Source: Nitrospirales bacterium
GTDB lineage: Bacteria; Nitrospirota; Nitrospiria; Nitrospirales; UBA8639
Direction of reading: 5' to 3'
DNA length: 64,000 nucleotides
Assembly: GCA_963555755.3 (NCBI GenBank)
Contig: OY820905.2
Coordinates: forward strand, 800,001-864,000
Shown one piece after another: positions 1-24,656 of the stretch. Within the stretch, counting starts at the first letter, position 1, and every line of letters starts with the position of its first letter. The position numbers and the translations under genes are program-made. The notes beneath the pieces were generated by a model that was not told where the DNA came from, searched no databases, and saw only the letters and a list, made by a program, of their open reading frames with translations.

Positions 1-864
1 AAACGTGTAGCCCAAGAAGTCGAAGGCGGTGATTGGATACCCCAGACGCCGATCGGCATCTTTGCAGTATACAATCTGGGTCTTCTCCGAATGGAGTTCA
101 AGCCCCCAATCCGCAAAGCGCCGCGCTAACGCCCCTTTCAGATGTTCGGCCTGTTTCCGGGTGCGACAGTGACACACCCCATCGTCGGCATACCGCTCAA
201 ACGGGATGTGCGGATAGTACCGCCTCATCCACGCATCGAAGACATAATGCAGAAACAGGTTCGCCAGCAACGGACTGACGACACCCCCTTGCGGCGTGCC
301 TCGGGTCCGCTCCCGCACCGTCCCGTCCAACACTTGCTCCGGAGCTTTCAACCATCGCTCGATATAGAGCAGCACCCACGTAGCTTGGGTATGCCGACGC
401 ACCATGGCCAGCAGCCGGTCATGGTCGATGGTGTCGAAGAACCCTTTGATGTCAAGGTCCACCACCCAGTCATAGCGCCAACACCGCCTGCGCGCCTGCC
501 CAATCGCTTGATGCGCTGATTTCCCCGGTCGGTAGCCATAGGAATCCGGGTGAAAGTGGGCTTCCACTTCCGGTTCCAGGGCCTGTTTGACCACTGTTTG
601 CGCAATCCGGTCTGCCACGGTCGGGATCCCCAACGGACGGCTGCCGCCGCCTGCCTTGGGAATCTCCACCCGCTTGACCGGCAGGGGCCGATAACTCCCA
701 GAGGCCATCCGGTTCCAGAGCTTATAGAGGTTGTTGTCCAACCTCTGCTCAAAGTCCGCCACCGTCTGGCCATCCACCCCAGCCCCACCCTGATTGGCTT
801 TCACTCGTTTGTAGGCTTCCCACACCTGACGTTGGGTAATGGGAAATGGCTTGGCCTGAGTCAC
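1..864 (-). CDS. ltrA: Group II intron reverse transcriptase/maturase (partial, open at window edge; several substitutions at usually conserved sites)
   Basis: Manual translation from GTG 864: [70 protein letters not shown]. Absent from the ORF track because there is no stop in the window. Confidence 0.92.
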
Positions 865-1411
865 GAAAGTCCTCCCATCGCTGGTTGCTCTCTTCCCTCA
901 AGCCCGATAAGGCAACCCCTTCGCTCCAGCTCCATTACAGAACCTTCTTCACTACTACGAGTTGCTCCGCCCCTGTACCCCGCCTCGGTACTCTCACGCT
1001 TGTGGGACCTCCACTTGCGTTTCTCCCTTCGCATCGGGGTGACAGGTTCCCACGTTCTCCACAAGAGCCTGGACCGCCTTCTCGCCGCCTTCATGCCGGA
1101 CGCCATCTGGCCAGTAACCAGGTGCCCGCCAGATTCCTCCCGGAGTAACGATCCCCCCCCGGTTTTGACGTCATCCCTACGCTTTCGACACGTCCTCAGC
1201 GGTTCACTCACGTTCGACTCGACGGTCCATACCTGACAGGGTCTTGCCCTGCCTTTTCCCATTGCGCTCACCACCACCTCTCTTAAAGGCAGCAGCCATG
1301 GGTGGTTTGAAGCCTCCGCCTGTACAGCGACTTCGAGGGGCCTCCCCTCATCTCTTGTGCAGCATGGCTGCACAAAGGACTGACGTCCTTTTGTGCGCCT
1401 TCGTGGCGCAC
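1..1411 (-). mobile_element. Group II intron, RmInt1-like (bacterial class D); 3' part runs off the window start
   Basis: 5' boundary GTGCGCC at 1411 on the minus strand, then a domain I-III-like leader and an RT ORF. Predicted EBS1 (1147-1153) and EBS2 (1178-1182) pair with the upstream exon. Confidence 0.9.
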
Positions 1412-2216
1412 GATCATCGGCATACCGCACGATCTTGGCTCGGAGAGAGCGTCCAACCTCTGGACGGGCCCAGCTCCGATCCACCTCATGCAAGTACACG
1501 TTCGCCAAGAGCGGGGAAATCACGCCGCCCTGGGGTGTACCCTTCCGAGAGCCTTTGCCCCCACTCACGCGCGTCGTTCCGTGTCCAGCTTCCTCAACCA
1601 CTGACACCGTTAGCCATTGCTTGATGAGGCCTAAGACGGCCCCATCCGCAATCCGTTTCGCCACGGTGGCCATCAGTTTGGCATGGGGAATGCTGTCGAA
1701 ATACTGGGACAGGTCGGCATCAAGGACAGAGCCGTACCCCGCGTGCAGCGCTGTGGCCACCGCATCCGCCGCATCATGGGCAGACCGCTGTGGACGAAAC
1801 CCATACGAGGTCTCGCAAAAGTCCGCCTCGAAGATCGGCTCAATGACCAGCTTGACGGCCATCTGCGCCACTCGATCGGTGATGGTCGGAATCCCGAGGG
1901 GCCGGTGACCCCCATCAGGTTTGGGGCGCCACACCCGTCGCACCGCTTGTGCGCGATACCGCTTACTCTTCAGCTCGGCTTGCAGCTTCCTGAGAAATGC
2001 TTCTCTCCCTTCTTCCGCGTCGATGGCCTCCCACGTGCGCCCGTCTATTCCAGGTGCCCCGTGGTGGGACCGGACCAAGGCATAGGCATGACTCAGAATG
2101 TCCGCCTGGGTGACCTTGTCGTACAACGCATAGAAGCGAAAGCCAGATTCAGACTTGGTCTTCCGATACAGCTTCCTCTGTAGTGTCCTGATCGTACTTG
2201 GGGTTGATAGCGCCAT
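1412..2216 (-). pseudogene. Group II intron RT, interrupted one base after the YADD codons
   Basis: [57 protein letters not shown], then the inner intron. Confidence 0.9.
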
Positions 2217-2706
2217 GGCAATCCCCGGATCCTCCACTCGTCGAAAGCGTGAACAAAGTAGGGTCCCTTCCCTCGGACCGGGTTATGTTGTCCCAGGCCC
2301 TCTAACGGTACTATGAACCCCTCCGACTCCCACGACGGCCCTCAGCGATTTCGGTCTCCCTTATACGCCTTGGTTGCGGGTTCTGCGCCCGCACCGTCGT
2401 GGGTCTCCCGTCCTGCACGGTGTCTCTTCCGCCACATGCCGCCCCTGCTACCCCGGAAGATCCTGAGGGTGGGTGTTCGTTCTACTCCCTCAGACAGCGG
2501 CCTTCCCCTTCTGACCACAGGGTCGGCATCTCCAAATACGTCACGAGGCGACGTCTAGGTTCGCTTGCGCTACGGCCTGCAGCTTTGCCCATGGGAAACT
2601 TCAACCCCTGATTACTCAGACGCTGCTTCCCGGTACTAGAAAGGTGTACGAACAACTCCTTTCGCGGGACTTTAACCCGCTAGACACACCGCCGATGACG
2701 GCATGC
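1412..2706 (-). mobile_element. Outer group II intron (5' portion), host of the inner intron; class not assigned
   Basis: RT ORF preceded by about 490 nt of intron-like leader (..TCTAGCGGGTTAAAGTCCCGC..). The 5' end is approximate and looks degenerate (GCATG instead of GTGYG). Confidence 0.75.
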
Positions 2707-2849: not shown

Positions 2850-4571
2850 ATCTATCGGACACCTCATGTGAATCAACTGGCCTTTGAAGAGTTCGTCTTG
2901 CCCTTTGGCGGCAAACTCCGCAGTGCCAACCGGTGGGTGATGCTCGCGAAGCACATTCCCTGGGCCGAAGTCGAAACAGCGTACGCGCAGCAGTTTTCCC
3001 CAGACGACATCGGGTCTCCCGCCAAGTCCTCGCGGCTCGCGTTGGGGGCCCTCATCTTACAAGCGCGCCTGGGAGTCACGGATCGTGAACTCGTGGCACA
3101 GATTGCCGAGAACCCCTCTCTGCAATATTTTTTGGGTCTCATGGCGTATCAAGCAGAGGCGCCGTTTCATCATTCTCTGTTGACCACCTTCCGTACACGG
3201 TTTCCTGACGAGAGCCTTGAGAAGATCAACGAAGCCATCGCGCGGCGGATGGCTGACGCCCAGCCAACGAGCGATGAACCAAGAGAAGCGAAAGGAGAAG
3301 GCGAGGCCGCTCCTCCGAAAGGCCAGCTCCTCATTGATGCCACCTGTGTGCCCGCCGATATCAAATATCCCACCGACCTGCACCTCCTGCATGACGCCCG
3401 CGAGAAAACCGAAGAGCTCATCGATCACCTGCCTGCCGCTCGGACCACGGCCCAGAAGAAGCCTCGCACCTATCGGCAGAACGCCCGACAGGATTATTTG
3501 CGCATCGCAAAGAGCAAAAAGCCGAAGAGCCAGAAACTCCGACGAGGGATTGGCAAACAGCTCCGGTTTCTCCGGCGCAAGCTTAGCGCAATGGCCGGCA
3601 TGGCCCAAGACGGATTACTTGTCACCTTACCCAAGACACGCGACCGCCAGCTGCTCGTCATTCAAGAACTGTATCGGCCACAGCGCTGGATGTACACGCA
3701 GCGCTGTCATCGTATCGCCGATCGGTTGGTCAGCCTCCGCCAGCCGCATGTCCGTCCCATCGTGCGTGGCAAAGCCGGGTGCCCGGTCGAATGTGGCGCC
3801 AAAATCTCGGTCAGTCTGGTGGCGGGGGTCAGTTTTGTGGATCGCATCCGGTGGGATGCCTACAACGAATCCCTGGATTTCGTGGGACAGCTCGAAGCCT
3901 ATCGTCGACGGTTTGGCCATGATCCGGCTTCGGTGCACGTGGACCAAATCTACCGCACCCGTGCCAATCGTCAGTTTTGCCACAGCCAAGGCATTCGCCT
4001 GTCGGGACCACCCTTGGGCCATCCCCGGGTGATGAATGAGTCCACCGCCGAGCAGGTGAAGCAAGACCAGCAACAAGGCCGAGACGATGCCACGGCCCGG
4101 ATGGCCATTGAACCTAGAAACGGCAGTTGGGCGCAAAAAAGCCGTGTAAGATATTGGTGTGCATGGTGAAATACAAAAAGTCGTAGTCACCTCGGTGGTG
4201 ATAAGACATTTTTGTATTTTATCAGGTGCGCCAAGAGCTTGCGCGGACTTTTGTGATCCAATTGCTGTTTCTAGGTTGAAGGCAAGTTTGGGCAAGGCAA
4301 ACGGCGGTTTGGGTTAGGACGCATGATGGCCAAGCTTGCCATCACCTCCGAAGCGATGAGTCAGATCTCGTTTCTGGTGATGAACTTGGAGCACCTCCTC
4401 CTCCGAGTCGGGTCTTGTTTGTGTTGGGCTTGCTGCCCGAGCTGGAAGAGTACGGAGAAAGACCTTCTGGGGGCCAGCTGGCTCAAGCTGAAGCCGGATT
4501 GTCGGGCTCGTAGTGGTAGCAGAGTTGAAGCCCGGTGGGTCTGGAGTCCGCAATTGATTGCGGCTTGGTGA
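2850..4571 (+). pseudogene. IS5-family transposase, split by MITE-A, start codon apparently lost (ATC)
   Basis: LPFGGKL..NRWV, DATCVPADIKYPTD, QPHVRPIVRGK. Removing 4113-4280 restores AIE|GKFGQGKRRFGL. Confidence 0.9.
4113..4275. mobile_element. MITE-A (163 bp), empty form
   Basis: TIR CCTAGAAAC/GTTTCTAGG with TTGAA duplicated on both sides; related copies start at 12392, 19230 and 41698. Confidence 0.92.
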
Positions 4572-23756: not shown

Positions 23757-24656
23757 CGCGTTGGGTGCGGCGGAGCTGGAGGCCCGAATCGACTTTTCGG
23801 CGAGGGCTGTTTGAGTCCTTCGACAAGACTCAGGATAGACTCCGCGAGTTCCCTCGCCATCTTATTCGGGGCGGAGGCGGAGGCACGACGGAGAGACTGC
23901 TTCTGAGCAGCCTCGGAGGGGCCGGGCACGGGCGAAAATCGACATAGGTAGGCGGTCACCCGCTTTCCCTGTCACACCACCGTACGTACGGGTCCGTATA
24001 CGGCGGTTCGGTGGGTTAAGCGATTGGCCACCAGGAGAGACTTCTCTCAACTGGTCACCCCTCGCCGGGCTTTCAACTGGGCGGTTCGCCGCGAGCGATT
24101 CGACACTTCCTCGTCAGTCCTTAGGGCTTCACCCCTATCCTCTGTCGGGAAGGCCAGGGTTAACTGGTTATTCAGCCGCTTGTCGCTCGTGAGTTCCGCT
24201 GCCTACATACCACTCCGTACCGTTCAGGCCTTCATCCCTGTCGGGACTACTATGCCCTCTGCTGACTCCTCCCGCCCGCTCTGAACTGATCACTCAGTTC
24301 TCAGTCTTGCTGCCAAGACAGACGAGAGGTCTCCCGAGGTACGCTCAACCGCTTTCAGCGCACGACCGCCAGATTTACACCCAATGCCCTTGATGGATAT
24401 GGACTTCGTGAAAACCAGCTCACTCGTCCGACACTGACTGCCTCGTATCTGGTTCTTGTTCATCGGCCCGCGCCTTTGCTCTACGCTTCCTTCAGACCCC
24501 GCCTCACGACGACGCCCTTGCGCTTCGCTATGACTTCACCTCCATCAGGTTGTCAAAGGGACTTGCACCCTCAAGCTGTTGAACATGCTCGGCACACTGG
24601 TTTTGGTTCCTTTTGCCGAAACAAAAGGAACTCGTCGCGCGGGGACGAAACCCCGC
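23757..24656. repeat. TIR-less hairpin-rich repeat H, split by a group II intron; degenerate relatives near 23360-23450 and 25170-25260
   Basis: Both halves are collinear with the copy at 33757-34071. Confidence 0.75.
23938..24597 (-). mobile_element. ORF-less group IIC intron (660 nt)
   Basis: 5' GTGTGCCGAGCATG; short domain V GAACCGCCGTATACGGACCCGTACGTACGGTGGTGTG; 3' end CGAT; no RT ORF; hairpin immediately upstream of the insertion site. Confidence 0.9.

Follow-up and report, generated by a model that had tools for sequence, protein, structure and literature searches.

A group II intron nested in the reverse transcriptase (RT) gene of another group II intron, in the genome of a Nitrospirales bacterium, is very probably a RYADD-homing class D intron, inserted one base after the YADD codons and likely targeted to them by base pairing. 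The position of the intron at YADD+1 and its pairing pattern, together with the breadth of hosts, the frame and the EBS-IBS layout, are established at the level of sequence comparison. The window analysed is a stretch of 64,000 nt (assembly GCA_963555755.3, contig OY820905.2, positions 800,001..864,000; genome label G000). Negative window positions refer to the rest of the chromosome (C1), which was read from the whole genome of G000.

Structure of the nested introns

The inner element, 1,869 nt on the minus strand, is a class D group II intron and is intact; both of its ends were read in G000. Its 5′ end, GTGCG, lies at 1411 and is preceded by an exon ending in TAT GCC GAT GAT C, and its 3′ end, ...CTCGAC, lies at window -457 (C1:799543). 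The features that define class D, namely a GUGYG 5′ end, an AY 3′ end and domains V/VI, are all present, including a match to RF00029 (domain V/VI) of 58.4 bits at the 3′ end. A match to RF01999 was found inside the intron at 1231-1349. The encoded protein of 414 aa matches TIGR04416 and possesses only RVT_1 and GIIM domains; the domain search detected no endonuclease domain in it.

The outer RT reads ...VRYADD plus one base (C, 1412) ahead of the inner intron, and its frame continues past the intron as YADD followed by LVVLC, giving 450 aa in all. An earlier note on this DNA had placed the inner intron one base after TAT GCC GAT GAT, which is confirmed at 1411/1412 on the minus strand. Checking the upstream DNA, as that note had advised, established that the outer RT does resume in frame, after window -457. 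The 5′ end of the outer intron is probably the GTGTG at 2689. The features are listed in Table 1.

Table 1. Features of the nested introns at the beginning of the window
Feature	Position in window	Strand	Basis
Inner group II intron, class D / IIB3-like, 5′ part	1..1411 (full: G000 C1:801411-799543)	-	junctions and Rfam
RT/maturase of inner intron, first 288 of 414 aa	1..864	-	RVT_1 and GIIM; own motif YADD-G
EBS3 = A, pairs with +1 = T (middle base of hydrophobic codon after YADD)	1091	-	covariation
Stem-loop ID3, 6-bp stem (1162-1157 with 1145-1140), 11-nt loop	1140..1162	-	fold
EBS1 GAUCGUU (AGUCGUU in most relatives), pairs with exon -1..-7	1147..1153	-	covariation
EBS2 GCGUA, pairs with exon -9..-13 (TAYGC)	1178..1182	-	covariation; unpaired in fold
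IBS1 (GAT GAT C), both Asp codons and one base of outer RT	1412..1418	-	sequence, covariation
Unpaired linker, third Ala base	1419	-	sequence, covariation
IBS2 (TAT GC), Tyr codon and first two Ala bases	1420..1424	-	sequence, covariation
RT of outer intron, 5′ part, 275 aa ending at YADD	1412..2237	-	ORF and protein family match
5′ RNA domains of outer intron	2441..2673	-	Rfam group-II-D1D4-6

Other mobile elements were observed in the surroundings. The outer intron has been invaded again: the 3′ strand of its domain V holds an intron of 1,994 nt with an RT gene (G000 C1:798969-796976, window -1031 to -3024, minus strand; L234). Of fourteen 5′ ends located for this third intron, eleven come after a domain-V-like strand, two after its own copy (triple tandem near 2.16 Mb) and one lies elsewhere; a sibling of the outer intron at 228996 is uninterrupted at this site. 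An IS5-family transposase is encoded at window 2868-4169 (+), next to the outer intron on its upstream side and in the opposite orientation. A second compact group II intron is located at window 23938-24513 (-), with matches to RF02001, RF01998 and RF00029 within about 580 nt, too short for an RT gene; it is possibly ORF-less.

Exon recognition

Covariation was analysed in 50 distinct domain-I/exon combinations, obtained from 77 class D loci for which both junctions are known and which represent many kinds of target, by determining for each exon position the intron column that pairs best beyond expectation. Exon positions -1 to -7 had 1153 to 1147, in order, as best partners, which recovers all seven bases of the EBS1 proposed in the earlier note. 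Of the five EBS2 bases proposed there, four were recovered (exon -9, -10, -12 and -13 with 1182, 1181, 1179 and 1178). Position -11 missed its EBS2 partner, probably owing to a gap in the alignment there, and -8 had no clear partner column. For +1 the best column was A1091, with 84% Watson-Crick pairs, which adds an EBS3. The sequences are kin, and this ordered recovery is not convertible to a probability. The covariation supports the assignment of EBS1, EBS2 and EBS3, an IIB-type exon recognition, to the inner intron.

Folding recovered the stem-loop described in the earlier note. GAUCGUU was folded into an 11-nt loop closed by the CCGGGG/CUCCGG stem, and GCGUA (1182-1178) lay in an unpaired stretch; folding of the whole domain yielded local stems and not the complete group II fold. 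The G at 1154 is likely the delta base, judging from its position.

In the proposed recognition, EBS2 would read TAYGC and EBS1 both Asp codons and one further base. The third Ala base would fall in the unpaired linker, and G-U wobble would allow either pyrimidine at the third codon positions. The EBS1 AGUCGUU of most relatives has a G opposite both Asp third positions, and EBS2 provides a G opposite the Tyr third position. The EBS1 of the window copy has an A opposite the third position of the second Asp, where a G stands for 111 of 114 distinct exons, and an A-C mismatch at -2 is found in two of the three genomic copies; it may be tolerated, or an adjacent G of the G-run may pair in its place. 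EBS3 (A) would favour T, the middle base of the following hydrophobic codon; +1 is T in 17 of 21 hosts and another base in four. A compensatory case is the EBS2 variant GUGUA (L036), which occurs in a YIDD host.

Alternatively, target choice could depend chiefly on the RT protein, or on co-location with other introns, the EBS-IBS match being secondary. Distal exons are protein-read in RmInt1-type introns, according to the available part of PMC4615759, and exon positions -16/-15 are biased to C/G (78 and 97 of 114 exons), which could be protein-read, although a conserved Arg codon explains this bias equally well. Nevertheless, EBS and exon covary position by position across class D lineages, and close relatives with changed EBS (L029, L034) sit in IS66 transposase motifs instead, making such protein-led targeting very improbable.

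Insertion sites of relatives

Relatives were collected in two samples chosen without regard to the exon, one from GTDB by RT similarity and one from metagenomes by EBS pattern. The GTDB sample comprised 80 loci, 19 of them with these EBS and 17 of these with a junction. Thirteen of the 17 junctions lie at [YF]ADD, the rest at YIDD, CADD, FADG and YADG. In the metagenome sample at least 121 loci were found, of which 119 were re-parsed; 26 lacked a junction (short contig or start unrecognised), leaving 93. Among the matches listed, 78 of the 93 junctions are at [YF]ADD+1 and 86 at xxDD+1, including eight other xxDD. The other seven, again among the matches listed, include two head-to-tail copies and one apparently one base off. 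Head-to-tail insertions were seen at L148 and L197, and off-target insertions in a methyltransferase-like gene (L167, FEDD), an MBL-fold gene (L172, HADD) and a resolvase (L100, HAGD). As a control, class D introns with other EBS had YADD in only one of 42 distinct exons (L027). That this lineage specialises on the RT motif, as the earlier note supposed, thus agrees with the tabulated 5′ exons of both samples, and in these samples introns with the same EBS do not sit mostly at non-RT sites. The control locus L027 itself is 1,830 nt long and has EBS1 AAUCGUU, an altered EBS2 region and a G in the EBS3 column; it sits at YADD-G, with G at -1 and +1.

Over the 114 distinct exons, the third codon positions hold C and T in nearly equal numbers (-11 C55/T54, -5 C62/T50, -2 C67/T46), -8 takes all four bases, and -1 is T in 73. 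This is in agreement with the wobble logic put forward earlier, by which TAY and GAY are both accepted.

A family-level DNA search detected distant class D introns in six of 114 other genomes, and these EBS were absent from the introns parsed among those six. The EBS pattern was found in three of 400 other genomes of the phylum and in four viral-collection contigs. The junction of the plasmid/viral/phylum locus L223 follows HADD.

Copies and target sites in the genome

The genome harbours three copies of the inner intron, identical at 1,869 of 1,869 positions, at C1 6424, 801411 and 3056192; this identity suggests recent movement. All three lie one base after the YADD of different group II RTs, with T at +1, and each host frame is resumed. 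All three are also at sites of the form TAYGCNGAYGAYY followed by T, of which the 4.6-Mb chromosome has twelve, nine of them empty. Two matching sites in G000 are outside RT genes, and no insertion was found at either.

About 33 group II RT loci were identified in G000. Three of the 33 RT motif sites are occupied and 30 free; the occupied ones are among ten YADD sites with T at +1 (3/10), against none of the 23 others, namely 15 FADD, three YCDD, two YADD-C and three own YADD-G sites, although many of the 33 are near-identical copies and hence not independent. The perfectly paired sites at 228996 and 241984 are empty. Points against the homing explanation are these two empty sites, the -2 mismatch of two copies out of three, the four of 21 hosts without T at +1, the off-target insertions, and the rejection of an exclusive clade for introns with YADD EBS (see below). 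All three occupied sites are co-oriented with replication according to GC skew, and so are 31 of the 33 RT sites, so that strand bias of insertion was discarded as uninformative.

A shared site could also reflect descent, if twintrons had arisen on one or a few occasions and had since been spread passively, as composites or by recombination. Some twintrons do recur with the same exon (e.g. L117, L139, L153, L202, L224). However, the identical inner copies of G000 occupy three unrelated host RTs, each with an empty sibling, and the 49 longest hosts fall into 39 clusters at 60% identity. This host diversity largely refutes passive spread, to which we attach almost no probability.

Public RNA runs contain joined exons (skip of 1,869, GT..AC) in contigs of X1 and X2, and also of X13 and X14, the library type of the latter two not being on record. 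The joined contig of X1 has 29 other letters on its outer part, as in an empty sibling gene. These contigs were rejected as evidence of splicing, the joined form being indistinguishable from empty sibling genes. In addition, loose-end contigs of runs X1 and X14 switch at L234:4557 to a related intron with the commoner EBS1 AGUCGUU.

Host genes and consequences of insertion

The host scan covered 69 in-frame stretches of at least 40 aa from the 114 distinct exons, 43 being too short; L223 was left out and the host of the window intron was scanned separately. The best model was a group II RT for 60 of the 69, a retron-type RT for one (L225) and a non-RT family for two, while six had none, one of these being a resolvase by Pfam. 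These stretches are N-terminal parts, in which the model cannot split true intron RTs from intron-like RTs. Class D RTs account for four of the 49 longest hosts, and one of them is 73% identical to the invader's own RT. Since 60 of 69 hosts are group II RTs and four of 49 class D RTs, the lineage parasitises mainly other group II introns, and its own class at low frequency. In 54 of 69 EBS-matched RTs the residue that follows their own YADD is G/A/S/T, and none of the three own sites in G000 is occupied. Strict self-avoidance was ruled out by the four class D hosts.

The retron-like host (L225) is the published host of B.th.I3. For this B. thuringiensis RT (L227:1280-5256 / L225:1431-5041), retron models gave the best scores. 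A YpsA/SLOG-family gene and a GIY-YIG nuclease lie behind it, and the intron may have split a retron-like system here.

The earlier note suggested that the intron could disable other retroelements. Extended, this would make the lineage a dedicated suppressor of retroelements generally (introns, retrons, DGRs, defence RTs), to the benefit of intron or host. The insertion does interrupt the catalytic motif region, just past the catalytic aspartates, and one host is the retron-like RT beside the YpsA/SLOG gene (L225/L227). In the available parts of the publications, RmInt1 reportedly splices inefficiently in vivo and thereby blocks its host IS (PMC5894124), and resident introns are considered as possible repressors of mobile elements (PMC7306698). 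Nonetheless, the insertion is in sense orientation and the frame is restored upon splicing. Moreover, the hosts are overwhelmingly group II-type with a single retron-like one, 30 of 33 RT sites in G000 are free, and each invaded host family there retains an uninterrupted relative. The class D hosts, including the near relative of the invader's own RT, also argue against a suppressor. We therefore regard dedicated suppression as unlikely; of the earlier suggestion, the disruption of the motif stands, and a general disabling effect draws little from these data.

Under the favoured explanation, homing to the YADD codons, three short loops of the intron RNA would pair with the YADD codons of RT genes, and entry would be by reverse splicing. 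By analogy with RmInt1 (PMC5894124, available part), and because the protein has no endonuclease domain, the RNP would reverse-splice into single-stranded DNA at forks and prime from nascent strands. The likely gain would be a renewable supply of mobile, conserved and dispensable landing sites that persist through synonymous drift. Splicing would restore the host frame, and some harm to the host intron is a likely side effect.

Phylogeny of class D RTs and possible retargeting to transposases

RT trees were built quickly with 119 rows and carefully with 42 and 26 rows, from a sample in which YADD introns are over-represented by design; support for the deep branches is weak, and RNA and ORF are treated as one history. 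The window intron and L225 (the same element as L227) were placed in one clade (SH-aLRT 93; 87/86 in another tree). The clade of the window intron and the B. thuringiensis element also holds transposase-targeting introns. Locus L228, which we take from its host record and exon to be RmInt1 of Sinorhizobium meliloti, was grouped with the window intron across a 100-support branch from two other G000 intron RTs, with two outgroups only, and its position is unstable between trees.

Introns at the IS66 motif 'HADE' group with L023/L024/L028 (100/99) and are nested in YADD-homing introns (97/97). They retain the UCGUU core of EBS1 and differ at few EBS bases. L233 ('HLDE') is sister to L110 (100/100). 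An exclusive clade of introns with YADD EBS was rejected (p-AU 2e-8, and 0.03 in another tree with L233 left out), the groups having been named once a first tree had been inspected. The simplest reading of these trees would be retargeting from D-D of RTs to D-E of transposases, and we hypothesise that YADD is ancestral for the whole subclade. Among class D introns with other EBS (L005-L095, L228-L233), insertion likewise tends to follow the first base of a codon in conserved transposase motifs: for 34 of 42 exons, the longest frame leading up to the junction stops in phase 1. Two related class D introns, L072 and L088, have 5′ exons resembling domain V of another intron, and are placed inside the YADD-containing clade.

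A broader scenario is possible, though tentative. RT active-site homing may be the old default state of much of class D, a hyperparasite reading Asp-Asp by wobble, from which several transposase lineages (IS66 'HADE', 'HLDE', 'Y[CG]DH') would have been derived by few EBS changes (D-D to D-E/D-H). Gly/Ala after the own YADD would then confer partial self-immunity, and other RT elements, occasionally retron-like, would be measurably curbed.

Comparison with known introns

The RYADD-homing kind of intron was reportedly described by Dai and Zimmerly in 2003, and is described by Tourasse and Kolsto (2008). According to the available part of PMC2504315 (Tourasse and Kolsto 2008, citing Dai and Zimmerly 2003), B.th.I3 of B. 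thuringiensis israelensis inserts with IBS1/IBS2 on RYADD codons, cut one base after the second Asp, in a retron-related RT. It shares this specificity with M.a.I5, UA.I3 and P.l.I2, which form twintrons. As described there, all these introns are about 1.8 kb, B-like and En-minus, with 58-67% identity over the whole length and conservation limited to IBS1 and IBS2. Because the same target, the same register and a retron-related host are described in this text, the idea of the earlier note is not new; homing to YADD+1, including its reach to non-intron RTs, is already in print.

Similar to these members, the window intron (1,869 nt, En-minus, in a twintron) occupies the same site in the same register in all three copies; M.a.I5, UA.I3 and P.l.I2 were compared with it by published description only. 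Locus L227 (B. thuringiensis JW-1 p3) has the printed B.th.I3 exon, 1,866 nt, EBS2 GCGUA and EBS1 AGUCGUU, whereas the window copy has EBS1 GAUCGUU, with A opposite -2. The window intron is 60.2% identical to L227 and 59.9% to L228, so whole-length identity does not discriminate. In contrast to the description available in PMC2504315, +1 is here also biased to T and covaries with EBS3. The available part of PMC3552965 applies the name B.th.I3 to a group g2 intron, apparently another element.

RmInt1 (PMC5894124 and PMC4615759, available parts) is likewise class D / IIB3 and En-minus, with a common EBS1/EBS2/EBS3 layout and an RT about 61% identical. In locus L228 the cut lies one base beyond the acidic motif FIDE and EBS1 has the UCGU core as well, and its G in the EBS3 column and C at +1 agree with the G-C pair of EBS3-IBS3 given in the available text of PMC4615759. 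Unlike the window intron, RmInt1 targets an IS630-family element and not an RT gene. Class D introns in IS transposases (L026/L029/L034 in IS66 LHADE, L038/L041 in IS66 KY[CG]DH, L233 at WHLDE) insert, like the window intron, after the first codon base of a conserved coding motif, but differ in EBS and hosts. The Thermosynechococcus TeI3/TeI4 twintrons (PMC2882425, available part) also combine diverged outer introns with identical inner ones, interpreted as recent insertions that occurred independently; those inner introns, however, are ORF-less and lie between the first and the second ATG instead of at the active site. In the parts available, reviews regard such twintrons as perpetual homing sites (PMC4424553), and the commonest neighbours of group II introns are other introns (PMC7306698).

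In the searchable literature, 'RYADD' was found only in PMC2504315, of which part was available. The wobble layout and the YADD-to-transposase retargeting were not found in the literature searched, with subscription papers (e.g. Michel et al. 2007) and supplements lying outside the search. Within that scope, the additions not found in print are the quantified wobble code, the IS66-targeting clade nested in YADD-homing introns, and the hypothesis of an ancestral YADD target.

Biological significance

The locus is a clean, intact and recently active example of a known habit, and G000 provides a natural test set: within one genome, three invaders are identical, seven matching sites are empty and 23 further sites match less well. 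It illustrates that an RNA-guided element can target a protein motif via the genetic code, by placing wobble Gs and an unpaired linker on degenerate positions. For annotation, an RT gene that breaks off at YADD is often the host of a twintron, not a pseudogene. Should the tree result stand, only a short mutational path would separate the targeting of RT active sites from that of transposase motifs.
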